64,000 nt of DNA, from contig OZ024751.1 of the NCBI GenBank assembly GCA_964016885.1, forward strand, positions 10,540,001-10,604,000. The letters run 5' to 3'. The DNA is from Eledone cirrhosa. Taxonomy: Eukaryota. The notes below the pieces were generated by a model. The model saw only the letters and a program-made list of their open reading frames with translations. It ran no database searches and was not told the DNA's origin. A program made the position numbers and the translations under genes. This document shows, piece by piece, positions 15,119 through 63,790 of this stretch; position 1 is the first letter of the stretch, and each line of letters starts with the position of its first letter.

Positions 15119-15209
15119 TTAGTTATATAGATTATATAATTTAATACTAATTGTTTATCTAATTATTAATATTAGTTATATAATTTATTATTTGTTACAT
15201 ATGCTTATA

Positions 15210-16945: not shown

Positions 16946-17435
16946 TATTCTTAGCCCCAAAATAACTGAGTGAAATTATCTAATGTATTCTTCTTTTCTT
17001 CAAGATGAAAAGATGTAATTTCAGATAGATTTGGTTGCTATTTCTAGCAGGCAAGAAATCATATAGAGGCTCTCCCATCATGGACTAATATATAGTTTAG
17101 TAGTTTTCCATTGAACTTTATTTAAATAAGAGCCTGTGAATAAATTTTATCAGTATTCAATGCTGACTTGCTTTTTAACAATTTAATAAGTGATCTGCTT
17201 ATATTATCTATGAGAGGAATTTAATATAAATATCAAGTGTCAGATATGAAATCCTGTTGATATATATATCTCACAAGTGAGAATTTGAGACAGAAATGGG
17301 AAATCAGCCAACTGGCAGAATATGAGCCACACATCTACCAGTTGTTAGGCAACTAAACCACAGAGCTTCTGCCATTCTATTGCTTTGAAATCATCATCAT
17401 CATCATCATTTCATTTTACATTTCATTTTACATTT

Positions 17436-17572
17436 CTACAGCTGAGTAAACTGGAGCAATGTGAAATAAAGTGCCTTGCTCAAGGAAACAACACATCACC
17501 CGGTCTGAGAATTGAACTCACAACCTTTCGATTGCAAGGCCAATGCTCTAACCACTAAGCCATGTGCCTCCA
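17436..17572 (-). mobile_element. SINE family 2 copy
   Basis: Nearly identical to 26813-26943. Confidence 0.8.
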
Positions 17573-17644
17573 TAGATATCATAATGTGTTTCTCCTATTT
17601 TAACTGTACTAAACTTGCCCAAGGTAACAAATACAATTGCTCAA

Positions 17645-17790
17645 AGACAGTTACAATTTGCAGGGCAGTACTGGAGAAGTATGCATGAAGTTATACACAA
17701 GCGGATGTTGTGGGAAACAACTCATGGGAGACGCAATAGAGGAAGAAATACTCAACCTTCATTGATTAACTCTCAGACAATATAAACAAA
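17645..17790 (+). mobile_element. Old LINE 3' fragment, continuing at 20745-20893
   Basis: FAGQYWRSMHEVIHKRMLWETTHGRRNRGR, then TFIGQLSDNSNLSREQLPGAMEN and a (TGA)n tail after the minisatellite. Confidence 0.6.
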
Positions 17791-17796
17791 CCTCAT

Positions 17797-20745
17797 AGTG
17801 CTGGTGCCATGACAAAATGTACCGAGTACACTCTGTAAAGTGGTAGTGCTGGTGCCATGACAAAATGCGCCCAGTACACCCTGTAAAGTAGTAGTGCTGG
17901 TGCCATGACAAAATGTACCGAGTACACTCTGTAAAGTGGTAGTGCTGGTGCCATGACAAAATGCGCCCAGTACACTCTGTAAAGTAGTAGTGCTGGTACC
18001 ATGACAAAATGTACCGAGTACACTCTGTAAAGTAGTAGTGCTGGTGCCATGATAAAATGTACCCAGTACACTCTGTAAAGTAGTAATGCTGGTACCATGA
18101 CAAAATGTACCCAGTACACTCTGTAAACTAGTAGTGCTGGTGCCATGATAAAATACACCCAGTGCACTCTGTAAAGTAGTAGTGCTGGTGTCATGATAAA
18201 ATACACCCAGTACATTCTGTAGAGTATTGCTCCTGGTGCCATGATAAAATACATCCAGACTACTCTGTAAAGTAGTAGTGCTGGTGCCATGACAAAATGC
18301 ACCCAGTACACTCTGTAAAGTAGTAGTGCTGGTGCCATGACAAAATGCACCCAGTACACTCTGTAAAGTAGTAGTGCTGGTGCCATGACAAAATGCACCC
18401 AGTACACTCTGTAAAGTAGTAGTGCTGGTACCATGACAAAATGCACCCAGTACACTCTGTAAAGTAGTAGTGCTGGTACCATGATAAAATGCACCCAGTA
18501 CACTCAGTAAAGTAGTAGTGCTGGTACCATGACAAAATGTATCCAGTACACTCTGTAAAGTAGTAGTGCTGGTGCCATGATAAAATGCACCCAGTACACT
18601 CTGTAAAGTAGTAGTGCTGGTACTATGACAAAATGCACCCTGTACACTCTGTAAAGTAGTAGTGCTGGTACCATGACAAAATGTACCCCGTACACTCTAT
18701 AAAGTAGTAGTGCTGGTACTATGACAAAATGCACCCAGTACCTTCTGTAATGTAGTAGTGCTGGTGCCATGATAAAATGCACCCAGTACACTCTGTAAAG
18801 TAGTAGTGCTGGTGCCATGATAAAATGCACCAGTACACTGCTACAAAGGTAAAGGTGATGCACTAGATAGAGGAAACTATAGAGGTATAAAGCTGATGGA
18901 CCAGGTCATGAAAGTAACAGAAAGAGTTATAGCACAGTTGATTAGGGACCGGGTGAAAATAGACGAGATGCAATTTGGGTTTGTACCAGGAAGAGGCACC
19001 ACTGATGCCCTCTTCCTTGTGAGGCAGTTACAGGAAAAGTTCCTAGCTAAAAGTAAGCCACTCTACTTGGCATTTGTCGACCTTGAGAAAGCCTTTGACA
19101 GAGTTCCACGTGCTGTAATCTGGTGGGCTCTTAGAAAACTAGGAGTAGATGAATGGCTTGTGAAAGCGATACAAGCCATGTATAGGGGAGCAGTCAGCAA
19201 AGTTAGGATTAGCAATGAGTATAGCGAGGAATTTAGCGTACAGGTTGGGGTCCACCAGGGCTCTGTTCTTAGCCCCCTCCTGTTCATCACAGTCCTGCAG
19301 GCAATAACGGAGGAGTTTAAGACCGGATGCCCATGGGAACTCCTGTATGCTGATGACCTCGCACTTATAGCTGAATCTATGGTAGAACTAGAGAATAAAT
19401 TCCAAACTTGGAAGCAGGGACTAGAAAGAAAGGGTCTCAAAGTCAACATGACAAAGACTAAGGTCCTTGTAAGTAGACGAGAAAACAGAACCCAGATCAC
19501 CTCAGGGAAATGGCCTTGCTCAGTATGTAGGAAAGGTGTAGGTAGGAACTCCATTCTCTGCCCCAAATGCAAACAATGGGTACACAAGAGATGTAACGGG
19601 ATCTCAGGAAGCTTAATTAAGAATGTAGGCTTCACATGCAGCAGCTGTGCTGGGACAGCAATCAGCAAACAGCCACAGGAAACAAGTACCACCAATCTCT
19701 GGGAGGGCTCTGTAGAAACAGTAGACAGCTTCTGCTACCTAGGTGACCGAATTAGCAGCGGAGGTGGGTGTTCAGAAAGTACAATAACTAGGGTAAGAAC
19801 GGGATGGAAGAAGTTTAGGGAACTACTACCACTGCTAGCTGCAAAAGGCTTCTCCCTCAGAATGAAAGACAGACTGTATGATGCGTGTATCCGAACAGCG
19901 ATGTTGCATGGTAGTGAGACCTGAGCGCTGAAGGTGGAAGACTTACGTAGATTAGAGAGAAACGAAGCCTGCATGCTCCGATGGATGTGTAACAGTAATA
20001 TACGTGAACGACAAAGCATAAATGAATTGAGAGAGAGACTGAGCATAAGAGGAATCAAATGCTGTGTGCAGGAGAGGCGGTTGCGCTGGTATGGACATGT
20101 GATGTGTATGAAGGATGACAGCTGCATAAAAAGGTGCAGAGCACTAGAAGTCGATGGAAACCGCGGAGTGGGGAGACCCATGATGACCTGGGATGAGGTG
20201 ATAAAAGCCGACCTTACCCAAAGGCAATGACACACGACCGTGACCTCTGGCGTCACACAGTAATGCAGAGTACCCGACCTCCCATGGGTACAAGCTGAAG
20301 CATATAGACAATATTCCCCCACATCCCCCACCGCAAGGTGGTCGTGGAGGTGCCACGGCAAAAAAGCACCCAGCCACACTGTAAAGTGGACGTGTAGGCA
20401 CCACGAAAAAGCACCCAGCACTCACTGTAAATGAGACCAGACACTGCCCACAACAGGACAACCCGTCTAACCCATGTTAGCATGGAAGAACGAACGTAAA
20501 ACGGTGATGATGATGATGATGACACTCTGTAAAGTAGTAGTGCTGGTACCATGACAAAATGTACCCAGTACACTCTGTAAAGTAGTAGTGCTGGTGCCAT
20601 GATAAAATGCACCCAGTATACTCTGTAAAGTAGTAGTGCTGGTGTCATGATAAAATGCACCTAGTACACTCTGTAAAGTAGCAGTGCTGGTACTATGATA
20701 AAATGCACTCAGTACACTCTATAAAGTATTAGTGCTGGTGCCATA
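17797..20745. repeat. 48-bp minisatellite (17797-18838 and 20522-20745) interrupted by an RTE insertion
   Basis: Unit gtagtagtgctggtgccatgacaaaatgcacccagtacactctgtaaa; 16-aa periodic ORFs. Confidence 0.95.
18837..20521 (+). mobile_element. 5'-truncated RTE LINE (RT + PHD-like finger + 3' UTR + (TGA)n tail)
   Basis: ORF 18896-19924 with LLYADD, nonsense codon at ETW, continuation 19934-20230. Confidence 0.95.
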
Positions 20746-22123
20746 GAGGAGGAACTGCTCAACCTTCATTGGTCAACTCTCAGACAATTCAAACCTGAGT
20801 AGGGAGCAGTTGCCAGGAGCAATGGAAAATTGTGAATTGTGTTGAGACTTAGTCAGGAATGTTCGACTGTGGTCACAATGATGATGATGATGATTTGATC
20901 TCCATATGAAATATAATCCACACATCTACCACTTGTTAGGCAACTACGCCACAGAGCTTCTGTCATTCTAAGTCTTCAATCAGCATCATCATCATTATCA
21001 CCAACATCATCATTTAACATCCACTTTCCCTGGTAGCAAGGGTTGGACAGGTCTACATAGACCAAGTCAATAATGAAGCAGAGCTACTGAGCTCCCAGAC
21101 AGGCCGAGAGGTGTGTATGCCGGTCATATTGAATGTAGAGGAGAAGTTGTAGTGTCTTTTGACACAAACTGAAGGGTCTTTCTAACCCCTTGTTTAGCAA
21201 ACTTTCTACAGCTGGATGCCCTTACTAACACCAACCATTTTACACAATGTAGTGGGTACTTTTATTGTGTAGATCACCAGCAATGTAGATCCTTTCTACA
21301 TTTTAACCCTTTAGAATTTAAACCAGCCATCTCTGGCCAGAATTCTCTCACCTCTATCTGTTCAAACTGGCCGCTTATACTGGCGTTAGGATATTGTTCT
21401 CAAAATATATAACATCAAAATCTCATAGATTCGATATTATGTGAGATAAAGTGTTTACTGTGAAAATATAATAGGAATCATAGAGTAATGTAAATGCTGA
21501 AGAGTTAATTGTTTCTCCTATTCTAAATGTAATATTTGGTCTCCAGTGAAAATTGTTAGATATTGTAGTTGTTTAGCCTTAGGTAAGCTCTTTTTGAGCA
21601 GATATATGATCAAAATCATGCCAACCATGACCATGCCATATTTTTTGGGAAAAAGTGGGGGCTTTAGTTCTATATTATCCAATGTGCCCTTCCTTTTTAA
21701 AGACTGAAGTACAGTATGTGATTTGAGAGAGTTTTGGCTGTTATTTCTAGCATTCAGGTAAGTTCCTTACTGTGTAAAAGAGCCTTTCATTGGCTCAATG
21801 AACAAAGAATTGTTGTTGCTGTTGTTGTTATAGTTTAGCCTCAGACTGGCTCTGATTGTACAACCCAAAGATCAAAGGTACACCAGCTGTGACTACCTTA
21901 CCATTCAGGATCATTATCCATCATCAGTGACATTTACTAAAGCTTATATGCTTTGTTGCATATGAAACATTGGCTGGAGATGATCATATATATCTACATA
22001 CTTCTATTATGTGTTAGTGTTACTGCTAACTAATGTAAATATACATATATATATATATATATATTATTGAGTAAAGGTGGCCAGAGTTGCCAGCCTGGGT
22101 GACCGCCTATATATATATGAGGA

Positions 22124-22335
22124 CAGTGGATTGGCAGTATCGGTAGAGAGTCGGACGCCATGCTTTGCAGCAAAGAGTTACGGCCCTTTATGATCTGATT
22201 TCAAATCCCGCCAAGGTTAACTTTTGCCTTTCACCCTCACGGGGTCGATAAAATAAAGTACCAGTCACGCACTGGGGTCGATTTAATCTACTTTCCCCTC
22301 CCCCAAATCACTGGCCTTGTGCCTATATAAGAAAC
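22124..22335 (+). mobile_element. Full-length SINE family 1 copy
   Basis: A box tggcagtatcggtag, B box-like ttcaaatcccgcc, core gcctttcaccctcacggggtcgataaaataaagtaccag. Confidence 0.85.
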
Positions 22336-22589
22336 CTATATATATATATATATATATAGTAAAAGAATGAAGAATAACATGGTCGGCTGTACAATAGAGT
22401 TTATTTACAGTATTAAATTGTTTCTTTAATCAGGTGAGTCTAAAAGCCGCTGATCGTTAGAAGTTAGATCACTCAACTTTATTTACAGTTCATACCTGAT
22501 CAAATCGTCAGAATACTGATGCGTATATAACACAGGGCACTGGTATTTATAGATACATCGGAGAATAACATAAATGAAAACAATAATAA

Positions 22590-22915
22590 TAATTGTTTCT
22601 ACTTTAGGCACAAGGCCAGCAATTGTCCCAGGGTATAACTGGTGCTTTATTTTATCGACCCCGTAAGGATGAAAGGCAAATTTAACCTCGGCGGGATTTG
22701 AACTCAGTCCGTAAAGGGACGTAACTCTATGTTGCAAAGCATGGCGTCCGACCCTCTACCGATACTGCCAATCCACCGCCCTATACAATAATAATAATTG
22801 TTTCTACTTTAGGCACAAGGCCAGCAATTACCCAGTGCATTACTGGTACTTTATTTTATCGACCCCGTAAGGATGAAAGGCAAAGTCAACCTCGGCGGGA
22901 TTTGAACTCAGATCC
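22590..22915 (-). mobile_element. Two SINE family 1 copies
   Basis: Same core, reverse orientation, (AAT)n tails. Confidence 0.85.
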
Positions 22916-23496
22916 TATACAATAATAATAATGGTTTCTGATAATAATAGTAGTGGTAGTAGTCATAGTTGTAATGGTGAGTAGATAGATGTGTAAAATA
23001 TATATACAGTATATATTATTTATTTCTTCAAAGTATTGTGTTGTTTACTTTGTTATTTCTGTTTACCTTTTACACAAACACATACACACACACATATACA
23101 TATATATGTATATAGTATTACTATATAAGGGAACAAAGAATCAGTGTTGCATCATATACATATTTAATTACATATTCCATATGTTTCACTGTCGATCAGC
23201 TCAAGGAACGATCTATTAATGATCGAACCTGATTCTGGAATCTGAAGCTCCTCAGATAAGTTTCAACATGTTGACTCACGCCTGAGAGTGGTTGAATATT
23301 ATATATATAAAGAGAGATGTGTTAATGTGTGGAGATGCTATAAAATAGCTTATAAAATAGGGTGAAAACCCTTAAAGATGCAAAAAGAAGTTGCCATCGG
23401 CTGCTTATATATATATATATATATAAACAAGAAGTGTAAGTCAACAGGTTAAGATTAACTTCGTTTATTCATATTTTGTTGTAATATATATTTCAG

Positions 23497-23610
23497 TGAT
23501 AACCATTATTCAACAGCTATGACCTCATCAGACCAGCTAGAACTTGAACAGAAAAAAACAGTGAAACATAATGGTGGAACTGAGTTTCCTTTGATATGCC
23601 CTGTCCCCAA
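23497..23610 (+). CDS. Probable internal exon, phase 2/2 (DNHYSTAMTSSDQLELEQKKTVKHNGGTEFPLICPVP)
   Basis: tttcag| acceptor, |gtatgg donor, 114 nt without a stop, phase-compatible with the exon at 29322. Confidence 0.6.
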
Positions 23611-23669
23611 GTATGGTGTTGTTCTCTCAAAGAACATATATATATATATACATATATGTATATGTATAT

Positions 23670-25534
23670 CATCATCATCATCATCATTTTACGTCTGCTT
23701 TTCCCTGCTTGCAAGGGTTGGACGGGTCCTATTCAGCACAGCGTCTCTCCACCTGTCACGGTCCTTCGTCATCTCCACCCATGTTTTTGTGGTATACCTC
23801 TACTGCATCTTCCTTCTACTGGGATTTCTTGGCACTTCTTTACCCAGTGGTCATCCTCCATGCGCATCACATGTCCATACCATCTCAGTCTTCTCTCCTG
23901 CAAACCACAACTTATCCCTCTTATACCCAGTTTCTTTCTCAACTCGTCTATGCTTGGTCATTCACGCACATTGACATTGCAAATCCAACAGAACATGCTT
24001 GCTTCATTTCTCTCCAGCCATCGCATATCCTCTGCAGTTGCTGCCCATGTCTCACTACCATGCAGCATCGCGCATCTCACACAGGCATCATATAACCGTC
24101 CTTTCGTACGCAGGGAGAAGCCCTTCTTTGTCAACAGAAGAAGCAGCTCCCTAAACTTCTTCCAACCCGTCCTTATTCTAGATACTATGGCCTCGGAACA
24201 CCCCCCTCTCCCATGCTAATCTGATCACCAAGGTACCGGAAGCTATCAACCACTTCTATAGAACCCACATGCATTGGAAAAATGTGTCTATCACTGCGAT
24301 TATTACTGCCATCTTTCCCTGTACATCTACTGCATACGTAGTTTTCCCTACCTGTTAGTTTGCCTGCTATCCCACTACATCTCTTGTGTACCAAGATCTG
24401 CATTGCATACATTTTATGGCATTTATGCCAGTTCCTTTCCCACATATCGAACATGGCCATTTCCCTGATGGAATCAGAGTATTGTCCTCTCTTATACTTA
24501 TCAACACTTTTGTCTTAGCTATGTTCACTCTCAGTTCTCTTGATTCCAACTGCTGTTTCCATAGCCAGAATTTATTCACTAGCTCCTCTACTGATTCTGC
24601 TATAAGAACCAGATCATCAGCATAGAGAAGTTCCCATGGACATCCAGTCTTAAACTCCTCTGTTATGGATTGGAGGACTATAACGAACAAGAGCAGGCTG
24701 AGGACCGAACCCTGATGTACACCTACTTGTATCTGGAATTCCTCCCTAAACCCCATTCCTACTCTCACTTTACTGACAGCACCCCTGTACATAGCTTTCA
24801 CTGTCCTCACAAGCCATTCCTCAACACCTATTTTCCTTAGGGACCACCAGATGACAGATCGGGGTACCCTATAAAAAGGTCTCCTCTAGGTCAACAAAAG
24901 CTAAGTATAGTGGCTTATTCTTCTCTAAAAACCTCTCTTGTAGTTGTCTCATTAAGAAGAGGGCATCTGTTGTACTTTTCCCAGGCACAAAACCAAACTG
25001 CATCTCATCTAGTTTGACCCTTTCTCTAATTAGTTGCGCTAATATCCTTTCTGCCACTTTCATAACCTGATCCATCAGCTTTATGCCCCTATAATTGCTC
25101 CTCTCCAGAGCACCCCCTTTATCTTTGTAGCAATTTATGAGAATACTGCTGCACCAGTCTTTGGGTATGACACCACCATATATAGCTTGATTAATGATGC
25201 TTACAACCAGTTTAGTGCCTACTTCTCCTGATGCCTTCAGCATCTCAGCAACTATCCCTGACGGTCCAGCAGCCTTACCATTCTTCATTTCCTTAATTGC
25301 CTCTTGTACCCTATATTCGTCAATCTCAATAGCTGGTCCCTCTGTCGGGTCTACTGGAGGTAATTTCTCTCTCTCCCATTCGTTCTCCACATTCATCAGT
25401 CTCTCATAACAACATTTCCAGGCCCGCTTTTTTTTAATCATTCGTGACACTAAGTACACCAGCATCATTCCGGACACACTTATCTCCAACAACATCCTGA
25501 TTTGCACTGACACACTGCCTTGCAATACGGAACA

Positions 25535-25538
<4 letters not shown>
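23670..25538 (-). mobile_element. Decayed RTE LINE fragment
   Basis: - strand ORFs with NYRGIKL, GVHQGSVLS, LLYADD, FRYLG; frameshifted; (CAT)n tail at about 23668. Confidence 0.95.
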
Positions 25539-25607
<69 letters not shown>

Positions 25608-25649
25608 ACATACACACATATATACTGTATATATATATATATAATATAT

Positions 25650-39933: not shown

Positions 39934-40620
39934 GGAAAAAATGAAACGATATTTCATTTCCCACTCTTAGTACGGCTGTTACTTAAATATAAGTATGTAC
40001 ACGTACATACATATATGTATACCGACGTACAGTAGTATGTATATATATATATACATACATGCACACATATATATATGCACGTATGGATTCACCGAACATT
40101 TATTATAATGCTCGGTGTGTTTGTAAACAAACATCCCGTATTAAGCCGTAGTGTCTAGCAACCACCGTTGCTCGTTTGTTCAACACTGACAAAGGAACGC
40201 TGTACTAGTTTCAAGCTTGTTAGCTATCGTCAGCAACGTATACCTTCCTGCCAGATTGTTGAACGTATATACTTACCTTATGCATATTAACGGCTGAGTA
40301 GCCCAATTTGCATATCGAGTGGGTTAATCGGCCGGGTGCACCGAAAACGATAAACGGAAAAAAATGAAACGATATTTCATTTCCCACTCTTAGTACGGCT
40401 GTTACTTAAATATAAGTATGTACACGTACATACATATATGTATACCGACGTACAGTAGTATGTTTATATATATATATATACATACATGCACACATTCAGT
40501 GTTGAAAAAACGAGCAACGGTGGTTGCTAGACACTACGGCTTAATACGGGATGTTTGTTTACAAACACACCGAGCATTATAATAAATGTTCGGTGAATCC
40601 ATACGTGCATATATATATGT
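39929..40620 (-). mobile_element. Diverged 1.67-mer of the hammerhead (retrozyme-like) repeat, with a 5' inversion (40496-40620)
   Basis: Colinear homology to the reverse complement of the 466-bp unit; period about 422 bp; flanked by (TA)n. Confidence 0.85.
40196..40240 (-). ncRNA. Type I minimal hammerhead ribozyme
   Basis: - strand: acgttg-CTGACGA-t-agct(aaca)agct-t-GAAA-ctag-TA-cagcgt. Confidence 0.88.
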
Positions 40621-40699
40621 GTGTGTGTGTGTAAAACTCAATCTTAGATAATTCATATGAACCTTATATAATTCCAAAATATACATATACACATATATA

Positions 40700-41938
40700 G
40701 TAATGTAATAAACAATATAAGGCAATTATTCCATTCACCAGTGGTTTCTTAAAAGCAAAATATTTTTGCCTTCAATCATCAGAATGAAAAAAACCTGGTC
40801 TATCTATATATGTATATATATATATATACACACACACATATACATATATATATACACATACACATACACATACATACACATACATTTTGGTATGTGAAGG
40901 GTGAGGCAAAAAAAAAAATATGGGGGGGGGGGGGGGGAAGGAGGGGGGGGGGGGGGGAAATGACATAGGAAAAGGTTAAATATAATGGGAGATAAGGGAG
41001 AAAAAGAATACAAGAGTACAGAACGTGGATTCAGCAGGTAAAAAAACCGTAGTAGAAGTAAAGAGCAGGAAAGGAGTTCAAGGCGGTTGAGTTACCATAG
41101 GGATGTCAATCCAGTTACAGATCAGATGTGGTTTCAGATGAGGACAACATCTGAAGATCTCGGTCTTTGAGTTTAGGCAAGCAGAAGTGGCTCTCAAGTT
41201 TAGCAAAATCCTATATTTTTCTGTGGTACACAAAGAACAATTTTTTGCGCCCCTTTGGTACCCCCTCGAATGGTCTAAGATAGACCAATCGATAGAGTAC
41301 GGGATGTTACTATCCTTGAATTCCCACACCTTACTTGCGAGGGCCGTTGTTGTTCGTTTATCGGAGTGCTTAAAAGAAGCGACATGTGAGTAAAACCTGG
41401 TTTTAAACTTGTCCTGGGTCATGCCGACATATCGCTCACTCCTGGCTGGCTGGTTGTTGATTAACGGTGTTATTTTAGCCTCATAAACAACAGATTTGGT
41501 GTTACATTTACCCTGAAATGGGCATTCATCCGGCTTCCTGCAACTGCATCCTGGATTTGTTCTCGTATGATTTGAACTAGTGATCTTGGACTTCATAGAT
41601 GGGCAACAAGAGTAACTGATCTAACCACAATAACAGGAAAAGGAAATTATTTGGTTCACACCCCCCTTCTCTCTAACTGTCAAAACTAATGTAGGAAGGA
41701 AATTCCTTGAACTCTTAGACAAACATTTTCCTCCTAATCATAGATATTATAAGATATTTAATAGGAACGTAGTTAAGATCAGTTACTCTTGTTGCCCATC
41801 TATGAAGTCCAAGATCATATAGATTCCATTTTTGTTTTTAAAATCCAAATTCAATAAACAGACCAGGATTTTTTCATTCTGGTGATTAAAAGCAAAATTG
41901 TTTGCTTTTAAGAAACCACTGGTAAATTGTTTATTACA

Positions 41939-41945
<7 letters not shown>
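40700..41945 (-). mobile_element. Penelope-like element fragment with an internal inversion and inverted pLTR-like ends bearing hammerhead motifs
   Basis: GIY-YIG ORF on -; upstream part inverted on + (IIWFTPPFSLTVKTNVGRKFLELLDKHFPPNHRYYKIFNRNVVKISYSC, ~41640-41818); 40700-40800 inverted relative to 41860-41945. Confidence 0.9.
41078..41596 (-). pseudogene. Penelope GIY-YIG endonuclease C-terminal domain
   Basis: CSC..CPFQGKC, SVVYEA..YVGMT..FKTRFYSH, CSLCTTEK, LNSKTE..CPH. Confidence 0.9.
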
Positions 41946-42915: not shown

Positions 42916-43199
42916 CATATATTTATATATATTTATATATATGTTTATATAAATATGTGTGTATGTGTGTGTGGGTATACATATATATATCATCATCATC
43001 ATCGTTTTATGTTAGCTTTTCCATGCCTGCAAGGGCTGGACAAGTCTTATCCTGCACAACAACATATCTCATTTTGGTCCTTTGATATCTCCTCTGTGAG
43101 CTTCATTGATTAAAGATCAGCTCTCACAACTTCTGTGCAGGACTTCCTTGATAGTGATCCATTACATATTGCATGTCGATACCAGTGTAGTCTTCTCTG

Positions 43200-44616
43200 T
43201 AGGAGATGCTCTAGATAGGGGAAACTATAGAGGCATTAAGTTAGTTGACCAGGTCATGAAGGTCACAGAAAGAGTTCTAGCACAACTAATCATAGATCGA
43301 ATTGATCTAGATGAAATGCAGTTTGGGTTTGTGTCAGGTAAAAGTACCACAGAATCACTTTTCCTTGTACGACAACTACAAGAGAGGTACCTAGCTAAAA
43401 GTAAACCCTCTACTTAGCTTTTGTTGACTTTAGTATCAAAAGGCCTTAAAGTTAACTTGTCTAAGACTAAAGTTCTAGTATGTAGAAAGGAAAATAGGGC
43501 ACAGGTGCCCTCTGGGAAATAGCAATGCTCAGTATGTAGGGAAGGAGTAGGTAGAAATTCCATTCTATGTCCCAAATGCAAACTATGGGTACATAAAAGA
43601 TGTAGTGGGATCACAGGTAAGCTATTTAAGAACGTAGATTTTATATATGGCCGATATTCAGGTGCAATAAGTAGCAAGTGCCCACAAGATACTAGCTCCT
43701 TCTACTGCCCAGATGGTTCCATAGAAATAGTGAACATTTTCCGTTACCTGGGTGACAAAATCAGCAGTGGTGGTGCGTGTTCTGAAAGTACAGTAGCCAG
43801 AGTCAGAACGGGATGGAAAAGTTCAGAGCTTATACCGCTGTTGGCCTCAAAAGGTTTCTCTCTAAAAATGAAAGGCAGATTGTATGATACCTGCATACGA
43901 ACAGCAATGTTACATGGCAGTGAGACATGAGCATTGTGTGCAGCGGACCTGCGCAGACTGGAAAGGAACGAAGCATACATGCTCCGTTGGATGTGTAACA
44001 GTAATATACGTGAACGGCAAAGCATAAATGAACAAAGTGAGAAATTAGGAATAAAAGGGATCAGATGCTGTTTACTTGAGAGGAGATTACGTTGGTACGG
44101 TCACGTGATGCGCATGAAAGATGATAGCTGTATAAAAAAGTGCAGGACGATAAAAATTGTGGGAAGTTACGGAGTAGGTAGACCCAGAAAAACCTGGGAC
44201 AACATGATAAAGTCCGACCTGGCACACTTACACCTCTCCAAGACAATGTCATGGGATCGAGATCTTTGGCGCCACGCAGTATTACAGAAGACCCGCCTTC
44301 CTTATGTGCAAAGTTAACCTACAGTCAGTAGGCCCCTCCAAACCAAACACACCCCAACTCACTACCCACTGCATCCTCCCACTCCCGCCAACATCACCCT
44401 TTCTCTATAAAGTTATGTTGGTACTACAACATCAAGTCCAAACTAACGAGATCGTGTAGGTGTCATGACAAAAAAAAAAAAAATACACAGTCCACGCTGT
44501 AATGTGGCCGTATATGTAACACGGTAAAAAGCTCCCAGTCCACACTGTAAATGTGGTTGGTGTTAGGAAGGGCATCTAGCCATGCATGGAAGATAGACGT
44601 TAAATGATGATGATGA

Positions 44617-45662: not shown

Positions 45663-46025
45663 ATATATATATATAGTACATCGTTCCTGTGTCAGTGTTG
45701 AACAAAAAGGTGACGTGGTTGCCTTAACACCGTATGGCATAAATTCAGGCTGTTCAGTTTGTTTACAAACGAACAAAGCGACGTTAGCGCCGCTAAACTG
45801 ATACGTGCATATATGTATGTGTACCTGTATGCATATGTATGTATATGTGTATATATATATATATATGTGCATGCTACTGTACGTCTGTATACATATATGT
45901 ATGTACGTATACATGCATACTTACATTTAAGTAAGTGCCATACTAAGAGTGAGAAATGAAATTTCGTTTTCATTTTGTTTCAATTTATCGTTTTCGGTAT
46001 GCCTGACCGATTTAACTCACTCAAT

Positions 46026-46078
46026 ATGCAAATTAGGCTGCTCAGCCGTTAATTTTCATAAGGAAAGTATATACTTTC
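46026..46078 (+). promoter_or_regulatory. Candidate snRNA/U6-type promoter cassette (octamer, conserved spacer, TATA-like), repeated in each unit
   Basis: ATGCAAAT 46026-46033 and TATATA 46068-46073; both retained in the diverged copy (~40265-40312, -). Confidence 0.4.
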
Positions 46079-46106
46079 GAACGTTCAACTATCTGGCAGA
46101 TGGGTA

Positions 46107-46151
46107 AACGGTGCTGATGATAGCTAACAAGCTTGAAACTAGTACATCGTT
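46107..46151 (+). ncRNA. Type I minimal hammerhead ribozyme (first of 17; others at +466 steps, last at 53563-53607)
   Basis: aacggtg-CTGATGA-t-agct(aaca)agct-t-GAAA-ctag-TA/catcgtt; 7-bp stem I, palindromic stem III, GUA cleavage at 46144/46145. Confidence 0.92.
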
Positions 46152-49100
46152 CCTGTGTCAGTGTTGAACAAAAAGGTGACGTGGTTGCCTTAACACCGTA
46201 TGGCATAAATTCAGGCTGTTCAGTTTGTTTACAAACGAACAAAGCGACGTTAGCGCCGCTAAACTGATACGTGCATATATGTATGTGTACCTGTATGCAT
46301 ATGTATGTATATGTGTATATATATATATATATGTGCATGCTACTGTACGTCTGTATACATATATGTATGTACGTATACATGCATACTTACATTTAAGTAA
46401 GTGCCATACTAAGAGTGAGAAATGAAATTTCGTTTTCATTTTGTTTCAATTTATCGTTTTCGGTATGCCTGACCGATTTAACTCACTCAATATGCAAATT
46501 AGGCTGCTCAGCCGTTAATTTTCATAAGGAAAGTATATACTTTCGAACGTTCAACTATCTGGCAGATGGGTAAACGGTGCTGATGATAGCTAACAAGCTT
46601 GAAACTAGTACATCGTTCCTGTGTCAGTGTTGAACAAAAAGGTGACGTGGTTGCCTTAACACCGTATGGCATAAATTCAGGCTGTTCAGTTTGTTTACAA
46701 ACGAACAAAGCGACGTTAGCGCCGCTAAACTGATACGTGCATATATGTATGTGTACCTGTATGCATATGTATGTATATGTGTATATATATATATATATGT
46801 GCATGCTACTGTACGTCTGTATACATATATGTATGTACGTATACATGCATACTTACATTTAAGTAAGTGCCATACTAAGAGTGAGAAATGAAATTTCGTT
46901 TTCATTTTGTTTCAATTTATCGTTTTCGGTATGCCTGACCGATTTAACTCACTCAATATGCAAATTAGGCTGCTCAGCCGTTAATTTTCATAAGGAAAGT
47001 ATATACTTTCGAACGTTCAACTATCTGGCAGATGGGTAAACGGTGCTGATGATAGCTAACAAGCTTGAAACTAGTACATCGTTCCTGTGTCAGTGTTGAA
47101 CAAAAAGGTGACGTGGTTGCCTTAACACCGTATGGCATAAATTCAGGCTGTTCAGTTTGTTTACAAACGAACAAAGCGACGTTAGCGCCGCTAAACTGAT
47201 ACGTGCATATATGTATGTGTACCTGTATGCATATGTATGTATATGTGTATATATATATATATATGTGCATGCTACTGTACGTCTGTATACATATATGTAT
47301 GTACGTATACATGCATACTTACATTTAAGTAAGTGCCATACTAAGAGTGAGAAATGAAATTTCGTTTTCATTTTGTTTCAATTTATCGTTTTCGGTATGC
47401 CTGACCGATTTAACTCACTCAATATGCAAATTAGGCTGCTCAGCCGTTAATTTTCATAAGGAAAGTATATACTTTCGAACGTTCAACTATCTGGCAGATG
47501 GGTAAACGGTGCTGATGATAGCTAACAAGCTTGAAACTAGTACATCGTTCCTGTGTCAGTGTTGAACAAAAAGGTGACGTGGTTGCCTTAACACCGTATG
47601 GCATAAATTCAGGCTGTTCAGTTTGTTTACAAACGAACAAAGCGACGTTAGCGCCGCTAAACTGATACGTGCATATATGTATGTGTACCTGTATGCATAT
47701 GTATGTATATGTGTATATATATATATATATGTGCATGCTACTGTACGTCTGTATACATATATGTATGTACGTATACATGCATACTTACATTTAAGTAAGT
47801 GCCATACTAAGAGTGAGAAATGAAATTTCGTTTTCATTTTGTTTCAATTTATCGTTTTCGGTATGCCTGACCGATTTAACTCACTCAATATGCAAATTAG
47901 GCTGCTCAGCCGTTAATTTTCATAAGGAAAGTATATACTTTCGAACGTTCAACTATCTGGCAGATGGGTAAACGGTGCTGATGATAGCTAACAAGCTTGA
48001 AACTAGTACATCGTTCCTGTGTCAGTGTTGAACAAAAAGGTGACGTGGTTGCCTTAACACCGTATGGCATAAATTCAGGCTGTTCAGTTTGTTTACAAAC
48101 GAACAAAGCGACGTTAGCGCCGCTAAACTGATACGTGCATATATGTATGTGTACCTGTATGCATATGTATGTATATGTGTATATATATATATATATGTGC
48201 ATGCTACTGTACGTCTGTATACATATATGTATGTACGTATACATGCATACTTACATTTAAGTAAGTGCCATACTAAGAGTGAGAAATGAAATTTCGTTTT
48301 CATTTTGTTTCAATTTATCGTTTTCGGTATGCCTGACCGATTTAACTCACTCAATATGCAAATTAGGCTGCTCAGCCGTTAATTTTCATAAGGAAAGTAT
48401 ATACTTTCGAACGTTCAACTATCTGGCAGATGGGTAAACGGTGCTGATGATAGCTAACAAGCTTGAAACTAGTACATCGTTCCTGTGTCAGTGTTGAACA
48501 AAAAGGTGACGTGGTTGCCTTAACACCGTATGGCATAAATTCAGGCTGTTCAGTTTGTTTACAAACGAACAAAGCGACGTTAGCGCCGCTAAACTGATAC
48601 GTGCATATATGTATGTGTACCTGTATGCATATGTATGTATATGTGTATATATATATATATATGTGCATGCTACTGTACGTCTGTATACATATATGTATGT
48701 ACGTATACATGCATACTTACATTTAAGTAAGTGCCATACTAAGAGTGAGAAATGAAATTTCGTTTTCATTTTGTTTCAATTTATCGTTTTCGGTATGCCT
48801 GACCGATTTAACTCACTCAATATGCAAATTAGGCTGCTCAGCCGTTAATTTTCATAAGGAAAGTATATACTTTCGAACGTTCAACTATCTGGCAGATGGG
48901 TAAACGGTGCTGATGATAGCTAACAAGCTTGAAACTAGTACATCGTTCCTGTGTCAGTGTTGAACAAAAAGGTGACGTGGTTGCCTTAACACCGTATGGC
49001 ATAAATTCAGGCTGTTCAGTTTGTTTACAAACGAACAAAGCGACGTTAGCGCCGCTAAACTGATACGTGCATATATGTATGTGTACCTGTATGCATATGT

Positions 49101-52100
49101 ATGTATATGTGTATATATATATATATATGTGCATGCTACTGTACGTCTGTATACATATATGTATGTACGTATACATGCATACTTACATTTAAGTAAGTGC
49201 CATACTAAGAGTGAGAAATGAAATTTCGTTTTCATTTTGTTTCAATTTATCGTTTTCGGTATGCCTGACCGATTTAACTCACTCAATATGCAAATTAGGC
49301 TGCTCAGCCGTTAATTTTCATAAGGAAAGTATATACTTTCGAACGTTCAACTATCTGGCAGATGGGTAAACGGTGCTGATGATAGCTAACAAGCTTGAAA
49401 CTAGTACATCGTTCCTGTGTCAGTGTTGAACAAAAAGGTGACGTGGTTGCCTTAACACCGTATGGCATAAATTCAGGCTGTTCAGTTTGTTTACAAACGA
49501 ACAAAGCGACGTTAGCGCCGCTAAACTGATACGTGCATATATGTATGTGTACCTGTATGCATATGTATGTATATGTGTATATATATATATATATGTGCAT
49601 GCTACTGTACGTCTGTATACATATATGTATGTACGTATACATGCATACTTACATTTAAGTAAGTGCCATACTAAGAGTGAGAAATGAAATTTCGTTTTCA
49701 TTTTGTTTCAATTTATCGTTTTCGGTATGCCTGACCGATTTAACTCACTCAATATGCAAATTAGGCTGCTCAGCCGTTAATTTTCATAAGGAAAGTATAT
49801 ACTTTCGAACGTTCAACTATCTGGCAGATGGGTAAACGGTGCTGATGATAGCTAACAAGCTTGAAACTAGTACATCGTTCCTGTGTCAGTGTTGAACAAA
49901 AAGGTGACGTGGTTGCCTTAACACCGTATGGCATAAATTCAGGCTGTTCAGTTTGTTTACAAACGAACAAAGCGACGTTAGCGCCGCTAAACTGATACGT
50001 GCATATATGTATGTGTACCTGTATGCATATGTATGTATATGTGTATATATATATATATATGTGCATGCTACTGTACGTCTGTATACATATATGTATGTAC
50101 GTATACATGCATACTTACATTTAAGTAAGTGCCATACTAAGAGTGAGAAATGAAATTTCGTTTTCATTTTGTTTCAATTTATCGTTTTCGGTATGCCTGA
50201 CCGATTTAACTCACTCAATATGCAAATTAGGCTGCTCAGCCGTTAATTTTCATAAGGAAAGTATATACTTTCGAACGTTCAACTATCTGGCAGATGGGTA
50301 AACGGTGCTGATGATAGCTAACAAGCTTGAAACTAGTACATCGTTCCTGTGTCAGTGTTGAACAAAAAGGTGACGTGGTTGCCTTAACACCGTATGGCAT
50401 AAATTCAGGCTGTTCAGTTTGTTTACAAACGAACAAAGCGACGTTAGCGCCGCTAAACTGATACGTGCATATATGTATGTGTACCTGTATGCATATGTAT
50501 GTATATGTGTATATATATATATATATGTGCATGCTACTGTACGTCTGTATACATATATGTATGTACGTATACATGCATACTTACATTTAAGTAAGTGCCA
50601 TACTAAGAGTGAGAAATGAAATTTCGTTTTCATTTTGTTTCAATTTATCGTTTTCGGTATGCCTGACCGATTTAACTCACTCAATATGCAAATTAGGCTG
50701 CTCAGCCGTTAATTTTCATAAGGAAAGTATATACTTTCGAACGTTCAACTATCTGGCAGATGGGTAAACGGTGCTGATGATAGCTAACAAGCTTGAAACT
50801 AGTACATCGTTCCTGTGTCAGTGTTGAACAAAAAGGTGACGTGGTTGCCTTAACACCGTATGGCATAAATTCAGGCTGTTCAGTTTGTTTACAAACGAAC
50901 AAAGCGACGTTAGCGCCGCTAAACTGATACGTGCATATATGTATGTGTACCTGTATGCATATGTATGTATATGTGTATATATATATATATATGTGCATGC
51001 TACTGTACGTCTGTATACATATATGTATGTACGTATACATGCATACTTACATTTAAGTAAGTGCCATACTAAGAGTGAGAAATGAAATTTCGTTTTCATT
51101 TTGTTTCAATTTATCGTTTTCGGTATGCCTGACCGATTTAACTCACTCAATATGCAAATTAGGCTGCTCAGCCGTTAATTTTCATAAGGAAAGTATATAC
51201 TTTCGAACGTTCAACTATCTGGCAGATGGGTAAACGGTGCTGATGATAGCTAACAAGCTTGAAACTAGTACATCGTTCCTGTGTCAGTGTTGAACAAAAA
51301 GGTGACGTGGTTGCCTTAACACCGTATGGCATAAATTCAGGCTGTTCAGTTTGTTTACAAACGAACAAAGCGACGTTAGCGCCGCTAAACTGATACGTGC
51401 ATATATGTATGTGTACCTGTATGCATATGTATGTATATGTGTATATATATATATATATGTGCATGCTACTGTACGTCTGTATACATATATGTATGTACGT
51501 ATACATGCATACTTACATTTAAGTAAGTGCCATACTAAGAGTGAGAAATGAAATTTCGTTTTCATTTTGTTTCAATTTATCGTTTTCGGTATGCCTGACC
51601 GATTTAACTCACTCAATATGCAAATTAGGCTGCTCAGCCGTTAATTTTCATAAGGAAAGTATATACTTTCGAACGTTCAACTATCTGGCAGATGGGTAAA
51701 CGGTGCTGATGATAGCTAACAAGCTTGAAACTAGTACATCGTTCCTGTGTCAGTGTTGAACAAAAAGGTGACGTGGTTGCCTTAACACCGTATGGCATAA
51801 ATTCAGGCTGTTCAGTTTGTTTACAAACGAACAAAGCGACGTTAGCGCCGCTAAACTGATACGTGCATATATGTATGTGTACCTGTATGCATATGTATGT
51901 ATATGTGTATATATATATATATATGTGCATGCTACTGTACGTCTGTATACATATATGTATGTACGTATACATGCATACTTACATTTAAGTAAGTGCCATA
52001 CTAAGAGTGAGAAATGAAATTTCGTTTTCATTTTGTTTCAATTTATCGTTTTCGGTATGCCTGACCGATTTAACTCACTCAATATGCAAATTAGGCTGCT

Positions 52101-53904
52101 CAGCCGTTAATTTTCATAAGGAAAGTATATACTTTCGAACGTTCAACTATCTGGCAGATGGGTAAACGGTGCTGATGATAGCTAACAAGCTTGAAACTAG
52201 TACATCGTTCCTGTGTCAGTGTTGAACAAAAAGGTGACGTGGTTGCCTTAACACCGTATGGCATAAATTCAGGCTGTTCAGTTTGTTTACAAACGAACAA
52301 AGCGACGTTAGCGCCGCTAAACTGATACGTGCATATATGTATGTGTACCTGTAGGCATATGTATGTATATGTGTATATATATATATATATGTGCATGCTA
52401 CTGTACGTCTGTATACATATATGTATGTACGTATACATGCATACTTACATTTAAGTAAGTGCCATACTAAGAGTGAGAAATGAAATTTCGTTTTCATTTT
52501 GTTTCAATTTATCGTTTTCGGTATGCCTGACCGATTTAACTCACTCAATATGCAAATTAGGCTGCTCAGCCGTTAATTTTCATAAGGAAAGTATATACTT
52601 TCGAACGTTCAACTATCTGGCAGATGGGTAAACGGTGCTGATGATAGCTAACAAGCTTGAAACTAGTACATCGTTCCTGTGTCAGTGTTGAACAAAAAGG
52701 TGACGTGGTTGCCTTAACACCGTATGGCATAAATTCAGGCTGTTCAGTTTGTTTACAAACGAACAAAGCGACGTTAGCGCCGCTAAACTGATACGTGCAT
52801 ATATGTATGTGTACCTGTATGCATATGTATGTATATGTGTATATATATATATATATGTGCATGCTACTGTACGTCTGTATACATATATGTATGTACGTAT
52901 ACATGCATACTTACATTTAAGTAAGTGCCATACTAAGAGTGAGAAATGAAATTTCGTTTTCATTTTGTTTCAATTTATCGTTTTCGGTATGCCTGACCGA
53001 TTTAACTCACTCAATATGCAAATTAGGCTGCTCAGCCGTTAATTTTCATAAGGAAAGTATATACTTTCGAACGTTCAACTATCTGGCAGATGGGTAAACG
53101 GTGCTGATGATAGCTAACAAGCTTGAAACTAGTACATCGTTCCTGTGTCAGTGTTGAACAAAAAGGTGACGTGGTTGCCTTAACACCGTATGGCATAAAT
53201 TCAGGCTGTTCAGTTTGTTTACAAACGAACAAAGCGACGTTAGCGCCGCTAAACTGATACGTGCATATATGTATGTGTACCTGTATGCATATGTATGTAT
53301 ATGTGTATATATATATATATATGTGCATGCTACTGTACGTCTGTATACATATATGTATGTACGTATACATGCATACTTACATTTAAGTAAGTGCCATACT
53401 AAGAGTGAGAAATGAAATTTCGTTTTCATTTTGTTTCAATTTATCGTTTTCGGTATGCCTGACCGATTTAACTCACTCAATATGCAAATTAGGCTGCTCA
53501 GCCGTTAATTTTCATAAGGAAAGTATATACTTTCGAACGTTCAACTATCTGGCAGATGGGTAAACGGTGCTGATGATAGCTAACAAGCTTGAAACTAGTA
53601 CATCGTTCCTGTGTCAGTGTTGAACAAAAAGGTGACGTGGTTGCCTTAACACCGTATGGCATAAATTCAGGCTGTTCAGTTTGTTTACAAACGAACAAAG
53701 CGACGTTAGCGCCGCTAAACTGATACGTGCATATATGTATGTGTACCTGTATGCATATGTATGTATATGTGTATATATATATATATATGTGCATGCTACT
53801 GTACGTCTGTATACATATATGTATGTACGTATACATGCATACTTACATTTAAGTAAGTGCCATACTAAGAGTGAGAAATGAAATTTCGTTTTCATTTTGT
53901 TTCA

Positions 53905-54009
<105 letters not shown>

Positions 54010-54526: not shown

Positions 54527-54639
54527 CATATATATAAAATAAAGGATCGATTGACTTTCGTCAAATTGAACCGAGGAAACAATGTTTTCGTCGGTCTTTC
54601 AAATTGCTAATACTATCTATCGGTCGCAACTCCAGGTAG

Positions 54640-54762
54640 AAGGAGCAACGTGAAATAAAGTGTCTTGCTCAAGGACATAACGCATCACCCGGTCCAGGAA
54701 TCGAACTCACAGCCTCAAGATTGTGAATCCAATTCTTTAACCACTCAGCCATGCGCCTTCAC
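54640..54762 (-). mobile_element. SINE family 2 copy
   Basis: gagcaacgtgaaataaagtgtcttgctcaagga...gaatcgaactc...taaccactcagccatgcgcct. Confidence 0.8.
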
Positions 54763-54768
54763 AAAAAA

Positions 54769-54800
<32 letters not shown>

Positions 54801-54851
54801 AGGGCGGTGCCCCAGCATGGCCTCAGCCGGATGGCTGAAACAGGTAAAAGA

Positions 54852-54883
<32 letters not shown>

Positions 54884-61476: not shown

Positions 61477-63790
61477 AAGTGATCCCTCAGATACGAGTTT
61501 AATTCGTTCCGTGACTCAATTTACTCGTATCTCAAATCAATTTTCCTTATTGAAATTAATTGAAATGCTATTAATCCGTTCTGACCCCCCAAAACCACAC
61601 CAATTTATTTATGTTACGTGTTTTTAATAAGCAAAATATACTTTATAAATAACAAATAATGTATAATGAAATAATAAGAACATAATAAAAGAGAATGTAA
61701 AGAAATAAACTGGATTTATTAAGTGTATTTATTTTCAAGATGAAACGAAAAAGCTGGCAGAGGTGAAGGAGAATGACGGGGGAGGCTGTAAATGTTTTTC
61801 GTTTTGCGCTCTATCTCTTAACTTGACTTACTTACTACGCAGTTAATGGTATTTTTTATTGCTAAATTTAACTTATACACTTAATCGCTAAACTTAATTG
61901 CTATTTTTCTTTTACTTTTTTTTTCTTTTCGTACCATACGGTACTGTAGTTACTGTCATCATCATCTTCACTGACTTTTGGCTTTTTGGCCACACTTTCC
62001 TCGCCTTCGCTTTGAGGGCGTTTCAATAGAAACCTGTCTAAGGAGGAGGTTTGTTTCTTCCTCCCTTTTAAAATGTTTCTGAAATGAGTGAGGCAAGTGT
62101 CGTTAAACAGTGCCGACGCACGACTTGTTCCAACTTTTTCTGGATGATTTTTGTCAATAAAATCATTAAGTTTCTCCCAAATTCCCAACATTTCCTTAAT
62201 TTCGCTTGAAGGGATTACTACCTCCTCTGACTCTGGCCCCTCATTAATTTCTTGCCAAATCTCTGTATGCTGCTGGTCCTGTAGCTCCTTTAATTCCTCC
62301 GTTGTCAATTCCTCATTGTACTCTTCGACGAGGTCGTTGACGTCTCCTACGTCCACTACCAGGCCCATGGATTTTCCGATGGACACGATCTCCTCCTCCA
62401 CTAACTCTTCGGGTTCGAATCCTTCGAAGTCCCTTTCGGACACAACCTCGGGCCACAGCTTCTTCCATGCAGAGTTTGAGGTCCTCCTTGTAACACGCTG
62501 CCAGGCCATGTCTATAATTTTGAGGCAGGCTACGATAGTGTAATGTTCTTTCCAGAACTCTCGAAGGGCGAGGTTTGTGTTTTTCGTAACCTCAAAGCAG
62601 CGCTGGAAGAGATGCTTGGTGAAGAGCTTTTTAAAATTCGAAATCACCTGCTCGTCCATGGGCTGAAAGATAGGGGTGGTGTTGGTTGGAAGGTACAAGA
62701 CCTTAATAAACTTGAATTCTTCTAAGATGTCATCCTCGAGATTTGGTGGGTGTGCGGGAGCATTGTAAAGGACGAGTAGGGCTTTCAGGGGCAGGTTATT
62801 ATCTAAAAGATACTTCTTGACTGCTGGACCAAAAACCAGGTTTACCCACTGCACAAAAAACTCCCTGGTGACCCATGCCTTTGGGTTTGCCCTCCACATA
62901 ACCTGCAGTTTTTCTTTAAGAATCGTATGACTCTTAAAGGCTCTGGGTTTTTCCGAGTGATATAAGAGCAGCGGTTTAATCTTTAAATCGCCACTCGCAT
63001 TTGCACACAGTGCAAGGGTCAACCTATCCTTCATAGGTTTGTGGCCTGGCAAGCTCTTCTCCTCTGCTGTTATGTACGTTCTCCTTGGCATCTTTTTCCA
63101 AAATAGCCGTCTCGTCACAGTTAAAGACTTGCTGGGGGATGTATCCTTCGGCTTCTACCAGTTCACCAATAAATGAAGTAAATTCTTCAGCTACCTTAAA
63201 ATCTGAGCTTGCAGCCTCACCATGCGTGACGACGGAGTGAATGCCAGTCCTCTTTTTAAAATTATTAAACCATCCCCGACTGGCTTTGAATGACTCTTCC
63301 GATGCCTCGTCCGAGGATGATCCCGCCGTCTGCCGCACCAAATCTCCATAAATAACTCGTGCCTTCTCACAGATGATGGTCTCGGTTACGGTATCTTCAG
63401 CGAGCTGCTTCTCGGTCAACCACCCCAACAGCAACTTTTCCATCTCTTCATGGACAGAGGTCCGGAGCTTAGAAATTATCTTAACACCCTTAGCTGGTGT
63501 CATAGCCTTTATTGAATCCTTTTGTTTCAAAATAGTACATATTGTAGAAGTATTACGATCGTACTCCTTTGCCAAGTCAATAACACGCACACCACGCTCA
63601 TGTTTTTCTACGATTTCGTGCTTAATATCCATAGACATCATCCTTTTCTTTTTCTCGCCAGTGTTCTTGGCACTCACTTTCCTAGGTTGAAACTAAGATT
63701 TTTATCGAAATAAACCCAAAACAACTAAAATCACAACAGTAACACAACAGAGATGCTCGCGTGCCGAGGTTACCACGTGGACTGACCGCT
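61477..63790 (-). mobile_element. Tigger/pogo-family DNA transposon, defective
   Basis: TIR-like agtgatccctcagatacgagtttaattcgttcc at ~61478; transposase ORFs on -; other end not resolved. Confidence 0.9.
61901..63677 (-). pseudogene. Tigger transposase (HTH/CENP-B + DDE_1), frameshifted
   Basis: FKASRGWFNNFKKR, VFNCDET//LFWKKMP frameshift near 63108, KDRLT, LLVLYNAPAH (catalytic D changed to Y), QPMD. Confidence 0.93.

Follow-up and report, generated by a model that had tools for sequence, protein, structure and literature searches.

The hammerhead array and its diverged copy

The segment under study (45960..46106, 147 nt) lies in a 64-kb window, by which we mean the whole stretch of DNA that was analysed, and corresponds to the final third of unit 1 of a tandem array whose 466-nt unit carries a hammerhead motif (Table 1). 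The array is bordered on either side by (TA)n tracts, its last base matching the unit is 53910, and its sequence has a single substitution among 17 full copies. No stop-free frame of at least 120 aa was detected within the array. Pattern searches for copies of the unit gave none in bacterial and archaeal genome contigs (two patterns) and none in plasmids. Within the window, the combined octamer and block pattern described below matched 18 times, 17 in the array and once at 40286-40313 on the minus strand, and no near-copy of the block was found outside the element at up to 2 mismatches (18 matches, all inside). A search of Rfam with 45930-46110 returned 0 matches at E values up to 5 and hence no sign of descent from a known RNA. 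At gathering scores, Rfam gave 0 matches in the whole 64-kb window, and hence no snRNA gene of the host for comparison. For the TA-rich part of the unit (45800-45912), folding predicts one long hairpin, shared by the two copies of the element; matches to microRNA families of Rfam in this part were rejected as TA-repeat noise. We found no literature on octopus hammerhead repeats or on this 466-bp element in open-licence text.

Table 1. Positions of the hammerhead element, its motifs and predicted helices, and the neighbouring Penelope-like fragment.
Feature	Position	Strand	Details
Diverged copy	39928..40495	-	568 nt; 423-nt unit; intact hammerhead motif (core 40233)
Inverted 5' part of diverged copy	40496..40633	+	138 nt; begins 13 nt after cleavage site
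5'-truncated Penelope-like fragment	40690..41945	-	~60 nt from diverged copy; not part of unit
GIY-YIG-like ORF end (C-terminal) of Penelope-like fragment	41081-41620
Tandem array of 466-bp unit, each with hammerhead motif	45674..53910	+	17.68 copies
Enclosing helix	45947-45953/46016-46022	+	Predicted; A-U to G-C double change at 45952/46017 in diverged copy
Hairpin with T-rich tract as 3' arm	45954..45975	+	Predicted; 45968-45975 pairs with 45954-45961
T-rich tract	45966..45981	+	Two T4 runs (45967, 45973)
15-nt run identical in both copies	45984..45998	+	Partly unpaired; contains shared 3' insertion end
Octamer and block hairpin	46025-46060	+	Predicted; octamer is the 5' arm
Perfect octamer	46026..46033	+	Also in diverged copy at 40306-40313 (minus)
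Conserved block (proposed PSE)	46041..46063	+	T4 run at 46053
TATATA	46068..46073	+	Centre of perfect 16-nt palindrome (46063-46078)
Type I hammerhead motif	46100..46162	+	Core 46114-46120; GAAA 46135; GUA triplet ending 46144

In the hammerhead motif, stem II has 4 bp with a U-U at its base, stem III is short and palindromic, and stem I, whose arm begins at 46107, is bulged. The motif aligned with the whole Hammerhead_HH9 model of Rfam at 18.5 bits (E 0.014), short of the gathering score, which is 52. We call it a motif and not a proven ribozyme, and its self-cleavage is predicted. Co-folding is predicted to pair two hammerhead copies through their palindromic stems. Among predicted retrozymes of Xenopus, 8 of 9 gave no cleavage in vitro, according to the part of a 2026 preprint on retrozyme origin cited here (bioRxiv 10.64898/2026.07.22.740005).

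A second, diverged copy of the element lies on the minus strand and is 84% identical to the array unit over aligned bases. Together with its inverted 5' part this insertion totals 706 nt (568 + 138) over a 423-nt unit, i.e. a 1.67-mer. The 1.67-mer form put forward in an earlier note on this DNA thus describes the diverged copy correctly but not the locus to which the note applied it, which is unit 1 of a 17.68-mer. The two insertions, 16% apart, stop at the identical unit base, equivalent to 45988, the diverged copy running into (TA)n at that point (39928). This shared stop lies 12 nt beyond the last T4 in the array and 8 nt beyond T6 in the diverged copy. The 5' ends of the insertions fall 5 nt upstream of the hammerhead cleavage site in the array and 13 nt after it in the diverged copy. 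The 15-nt run that contains the shared 3' end is a candidate internal reverse-transcription start site, a function suggested by the shared end itself.

The Penelope-like fragment beside the diverged copy carries its own minimal hammerhead motif (core 40782, minus strand), in which G occupies the cleavage position. It also contains a piece of ORF in inverted orientation, with 42 nt duplicated (41581-41622/41776-41817). A second Penelope-like end, inverted, more decayed and likewise hammerhead-bearing (~41854-41945), runs into (TA)n. The GIY-YIG-like fragment received Atlas feature scores of 0.95-0.97, which we take as a lead only, and had no Pfam match and no match among longer proteins. Comparison of the unit with the neighbouring Penelope-like end revealed no sequence likeness (best match 10 nt, E 0.52). 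In the text cited, reverse transcription by a Penelope-like enzyme begins at fixed internal positions that correspond to the ends of genomic insertions, and the enzyme cuts AT-rich DNA (PMC11167929), while inverted 5' pieces and microsatellite targets are given as hallmarks of Penelope-like elements (PLEs) (PMC8557442). Here the diverged copy and the fragment next to it alike show inverted pieces and a microsatellite target. We regard the Penelope-like fragment as context for the likely mobiliser of the unit.

The rest of the window is AT-rich and packed with (TA)n microsatellites, pieces of LINE-like retrotransposons and a Tc5/DDE transposon. LINE-like copies with endonuclease, reverse transcriptase and PHD finger in the ORF lie at 11657-14608, 18824-19924, 24367-25654 and 43100-44317; in the first, one stop precedes a stop-free frame of 776 aa, and relatives of the LINE-like ORF reach at most 56% identity among the matches listed. 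Two minisatellites were observed, one of 40 bp in 43.5 copies (15220-16938) and one of 48 bp in 21.8 copies (17796-18839), the 48-mer lying at the edge of a LINE-like copy. A 6.8-kb CAC/CAG-type repeat at 29345-36111 has stop-free frames of more than 2000 codons (Thr/Ser-rich, His/Gln-rich and Pro/Ala-rich) and could be a mucin-like exon or a plain satellite; a similar short stretch occupies 1-600. The Tc5/DDE (pogo-like) DNA transposon at 61901-63692 on the minus strand has two overlapping frames, and SINE-like repeats at 54580-54860 presumably resemble octopus elements. A scan for host genes covered 78 stop-free frames of at least 65 aa, from the window apart from low-complexity frames, the array and 11600-26600. 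It gave 4 Pfam matches, all in transposon-like frames, so that read-through may or may not come from a host gene.

Promoter-like motifs and predicted RNA folding

The earlier note had proposed that each unit may carry its own snRNA- or U6-like promoter and T-tract terminator, naming in this order a T-rich tract, an octamer, a conserved block and TATATA, followed after 33 nt by the hammerhead, and a pattern scan located all of these elements in that order and at the coordinates claimed. The note also held that the diverged copy retains them. Every motif is indeed present there, with T7 at 40364 and T6 at 39941, but 8 nt are missing between TATA and the hammerhead, the distance from TATA to the hammerhead core being 46 nt in the array versus 38 nt in the diverged copy. 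The 16-nt palindrome 46063-46078 occurs in the array unit only, and the 8-nt gap of the diverged copy lies beside its TATATA. The palindrome may derive from a fold-back duplication.

How much these motifs say depends on the motif. TATATA is present in both copies, while 23% of 150-nt background windows hold it and 50% hold TTTT; both words are thus common background and neither carries weight. The octamer appeared in 3.4% of unit shuffles on the same strand, in 6.1% on either strand and in 0.5% of 150-nt background windows, and an octamer followed by a TATA-like word, a pattern chosen post hoc, in 0.12% of shuffles of the 147-nt segment. Full conservation between the two copies holds for 20% of the 8-column windows, the conserved 13-nt block ranks sixth in length among 16 conserved runs of at least 8 nt, and the 48 columns starting from the octamer rank 15th of 418 for conservation (87.5% versus a median of 75%). 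Judged from these two sequences, the conservation of the motifs is not exceptional.

The same motifs take part in a predicted RNA fold. Region 45944-46066 and its diverged counterpart have the same predicted layout when folded alone, and the block supplies, in its 3' half, an imperfect reverse complement to the octamer arm; the mismatch is not the same in the two copies. Compared with shuffles, the predicted folding of the segment reached a z of -2.9 in the array (0 of 200 shuffles as stable) and -3.6 in the diverged copy (2 of 200), and the octamer and block hairpin alone was equalled in stability by 0/200 and 3/200 shuffles, respectively. Folded as circles, the monomers gave z values of -7.75 and -6.5 against shuffles, aided by the TA-rich hairpin. 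Their predicted energies were -152 and -142 kcal/mol on the hammerhead strand versus -111 and -116 kcal/mol on the opposite strand (26-41 better).

Covariation was assessed with null tests in which the observed substitutions were redistributed; these tests compare two sequence variants and have no control for relatedness. Broken pairs in the segment numbered 1 against 4.5 expected in the first alignment (P 0.013), and in the second alignment 2 against 6.2 (P 0.011) one way and 3 against 5.6 (P 0.093) the other. Outside the TA-rich part, double changes that keep the pair numbered 5 against 1.6 (P 0.018) and 7 against 2.0 (P 0.002), and such changes are found at 45952/46017, 45735/45940 and 45739/45936. 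They did not reach significance within the segment by itself (1 observed, P 0.27-0.52) or over the whole monomer in the first alignment (2 against 1.2, P 0.32). With RNAalifold, 7 of 115 pairs were changed on both sides; its structure did not contain the long octamer hairpin, keeping a 4-bp core and pairing the 5' part of the octamer with the TATA region. A reverse-complement control gave a signal too (P 0.014-0.029 in three regions, 0.21 in the segment), and the covariation test alone therefore cannot separate RNA structure from inverted repeats in the DNA. Covariation thus lends modest support, from two sequences, to the predicted structure of the segment. Overall, the folding models suggest that the conservation of the motifs is owed mainly to RNA structure. 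With this predicted structure the conservation can be explained without a promoter, and the structure would be compatible with promoter activity as a second role.

Proposed transcription and copying of the unit

The T-rich tract had been read as an oligo-T terminator, a role that the ends of the insertions contradict. Both insertions contain the tract, as T4+T4 in the array and as T6/T7 in the diverged copy, whose first unit holds T7 and T4 too, and both end past it. Because they include the tract and end 12 nt beyond it, the template RNA must have been read through it. Human Pol III stops within a T run in 75% of cases at T4, in 95% at T5 and completely at longer runs, according to the data cited (PMC5725217), and the four T4 runs of each unit would allow ~0.4% read-through at these human rates, from which those of the host may differ. 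It is unlikely, on the sequence of these insertions, that the tract is a stop signal or the end of the RNA. One part of the earlier argument holds, namely that an upstream promoter would survive copying only through read-through of tandem units. The segment is clearly inside the copied RNA. The further proposal that read-through is the cause of the 0.67 remainder does less well, this remainder being better explained by a fixed internal start of reverse transcription of the kind reported for the Penelope-like enzyme in the text cited (PMC11167929).

We consider it likely that the element is a non-LTR retrozyme: its entire unit would be transcribed, undergo self-cleavage and be copied, with a fixed internal start and a Penelope-like enzyme as the probable reverse transcriptase. 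Metazoan non-LTR retrozymes are described as tandem type I hammerhead units with a GC content under 45%, expressed as linear and circular monomers, and PLEs have been proposed as their mobilisers (PMC7229834; bioRxiv 10.64898/2026.07.22.740005, both as excerpted). The array has 17 full copies of a complete type I hammerhead motif with identical cores, the few-hundred-bp unit is non-coding and low in GC (466 and 423 nt, with 36% and 38% GC, in the array and the diverged copy, respectively), and the predicted circular monomer is highly self-paired. The 466-nt unit exceeds the 170-400 nt given for expressed retrozymes in one source (PMC7229834) and falls within the 51-972 bp given in the 2026 preprint.

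As we envisage it, read-through transcription of tandem units, likely by Pol II, would yield an RNA that includes the T tract and the promoter-like motifs. Cuts at successive hammerheads, possibly acting as dimers given the palindromic stem III, would then release 466-nt monomers, which would, by analogy, be circularised. Target-primed copying, probably by a Penelope-like enzyme, would begin from the 45984-45998 motif on nicked (TA)n through a TAT microhomology. Copying would thus start at unit position ~0.67, go round the circle or hop between linear monomers, and halt near the cut site, leaving n+0.67 copies (1.67 and 17.68) with no need of a terminator. Read-through is the likely source of transcription, and we infer Pol II rather than Pol III as the polymerase, as well as cleavage, circularisation and the identity of the reverse transcriptase.

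It is possible, though doubtful, that the motifs serve twice and that a compact Pol II promoter of the snRNA type (SNAPc-dependent), such as the one reported for newt satellite 2, is built into every unit. In that case the octamer would be the enhancer, the PSE would lie within 46033-46063 and transcription would start near 46098-46107, with TATATA and the T tract incidental; transcripts would read through the next unit, so that the promoter would be rebuilt in every monomer. The octamer is perfect in both copies, where chance gives 3.4-6.1% for its presence in the unit and ~20% for an 8-mer remaining intact, and the 48 columns that start from it stand high in the conservation ranking given above. 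In each copy the mismatches of the hairpin lie on the right arm and leave the octamer intact, although these are two events only. When a 21-nt window is set 35 nt before TATA, the spacing of the U6 promoter of S. japonicum, it falls on 46033-46053, touches the octamer and is conserved at 19 of 21 positions. The promoter of newt satellite 2 is reportedly a Pol II promoter, shown by experiments that are attributed to Coats et al. in 1994. Precedents in the passages cited are the snRNA promoter of newt satellite II used by Pol II (cited in PMC2220036) and the compact human H1 promoter, with its DSE beside the PSE (PMC6023835), and the high expression of retrozymes in many tissues (PMC7229834, as excerpted) would be explicable by a built-in promoter.

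Against such a promoter stands first its geometry. The octamer of the S. japonicum U6 promoter is at -253, its PSE at -71 to -51 and its TATA at -36 (PMC5460494); in human promoters the PSE is found 40-70 bp upstream and the distal element between -250 and -170 (PMC9652321), and in U6 and 7SK ~150 bp separate the distal element from the PSE (PMC6023835), in the parts of these sources cited. The usual distance between octamer and PSE is thus ~150 bp or more, whereas in this unit 7 nt separate the octamer from the block and 0 nt from the U6-spaced window, with 42 nt from octamer to TATA and 27 nt from the start of the block to TATA. The block is moreover largely the complement of the octamer arm, and its conservation is therefore already accounted for by structure. 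By eye it matches neither the S. japonicum PSE (PMC5460494) nor the invariant core of the Drosophila PSEA (PMC1761439) as given in the cited passages, although PSE elements change fast between taxa. The 8-nt gap of the diverged copy displaces the motifs relative to the hammerhead. Retrozymes seem to be without promoters according to a passage in a review (PMC7761336), and the 2026 preprint never mentions a promoter. A bolder form of the idea, which we think unlikely, would make the inverted repeat itself an ultra-compact snRNA-type Pol II promoter. It would act in DNA as octamer, degenerate inverted octamer and PSE and in RNA as a stem of the circle, near a fixed Penelope-like reverse-transcription start that sets n+0.67.

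Growth of the array after insertion is improbable as an overall explanation. It holds that the array expanded by unequal crossing-over from a 1.67-mer, or is partly an effect of assembly, and is now a passive satellite served by outside promoters, if any, with its motifs left over. Recombination between the direct repeats of a 1.67-mer would give exactly n+0.67 copies; the one base difference among 17 full copies points to very recent expansion or homogenisation, and unequal crossover is the accepted route to such arrays in the text cited from the 2026 preprint (bioRxiv 10.64898/2026.07.22.740005). However, a single round of rolling-circle copying predicts near-identity equally well, and growth after insertion explains the copy number only. 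It leaves unexplained the 3' end shared by insertions that are 16% diverged, the 5' ends near the cut site and the conservation of hammerhead and helices. If the element is a retrozyme, n could in addition have been raised afterwards by unequal crossing-over.

The model of the earlier note, in which a U6-type promoter drives Pol III, transcripts end at the oligo-T of the next unit and rare read-through generates 1.67-mers, is highly improbable, and we reject the U6 and terminator reading. The order of the motifs does match that of type 3 promoters, and a TATA at -30 to -36 would place the start at 46098-46104, just before the hammerhead. TATATA is nevertheless a background word, found in 23% of 150-nt windows, and the 27 nt from the start of the block to TATA depart from the 35 nt of the published U6 promoter. 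The T6/T7 runs lie inside the insertions, whereas runs beyond T5 halt human Pol III fully in the source cited above, and the ~0.4% read-through at human rates would apply to every unit. Were the transcript to end in the tract, it would contain neither the promoter nor a second hammerhead, and could thus not be circularised, be cut to monomers or pass a promoter on. In a leaky variant, a stop at the third T4 (45991-45994) with priming slightly inside the end would produce the shared insertion end; this accounts for the end point but not for read-through of T6/T7. A scan for the snRNA 3' box gave one match with up to 2 mismatches, at 45761, and none near the shared end. A tRNA-type internal promoter was rejected, as no tRNA gene was found and no A-box match on either strand, and the one B-box-like word of the unit is on the minus strand only.

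A non-LTR retrozyme copied from a fixed internal site remains the reading we favour. The element class is already known, but the promoter of animal retrozymes, which are abundant as circular RNAs, is unsettled, as is the way they are copied. To these questions the locus brings a single-base candidate for the start of reverse transcription, common to two insertions 16% apart, and a conserved octamer hairpin as a promoter candidate. If such a built-in promoter were real, the solution seen in newt satellite 2 would be a recurrent one, and animal retrozymes would count as transcription units in their own right instead of read-through passengers. A positive promoter test would matter given the view, expressed in the review passage cited above (PMC7761336), that retrozymes have none, though the newt offers a precedent.

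Comparison with known systems

Like newt satellite 2, the array is a tandem hammerhead satellite with a short palindromic stem III and an octamer upstream of the ribozyme motif in each unit. In contrast to that satellite and its experimentally demonstrated Pol II promoter, the octamer of the array abuts the candidate PSE and is predicted to pair with it, and its promoter role is putative. With type 3 Pol III (U6-like) promoters it shares the order of octamer, conserved block and TATA-like word, for which H1 is a compact precedent in the source cited. It differs from them in an octamer placed 42 nt before TATA instead of ~200, in a distance from block to TATA that is 8 nt short and in T runs that are read through. 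The schistosome hammerhead satellite is also a tandem hammerhead repeat, reportedly with its own internal Pol III promoter (as cited in PMC2220036), whereas the unit described here has no A box, a B-box-like word on the minus strand only and no tRNA gene.

Partial-tandem and inverted insertions, microsatellite targets, a hammerhead and fixed internal ends link the element to Penelope-like pseudo-LTRs (PMC8557442 and PMC11167929, as excerpted), but its unit has no reverse transcriptase or endonuclease ORF. Its hammerhead is of canonical size with an extended stem I, unlike the minimal one of the neighbouring fragment. From the metazoan retrozymes of coral, mussel and axolotl it departs in a 466-nt unit with a long internal TA-rich hairpin, in the lack of a sequence link to the local PLE end and, relative to their description in the text cited, in the fixed 3' end and n+0.67 form shared by two insertions. 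With these retrozymes it has in common tandem type I units, low GC, no notable ORF, a self-paired predicted circle and a Penelope-like fragment nearby, and with the axolotl HHR_Amex2, as described in the excerpt, a U-U at the base of helix II.
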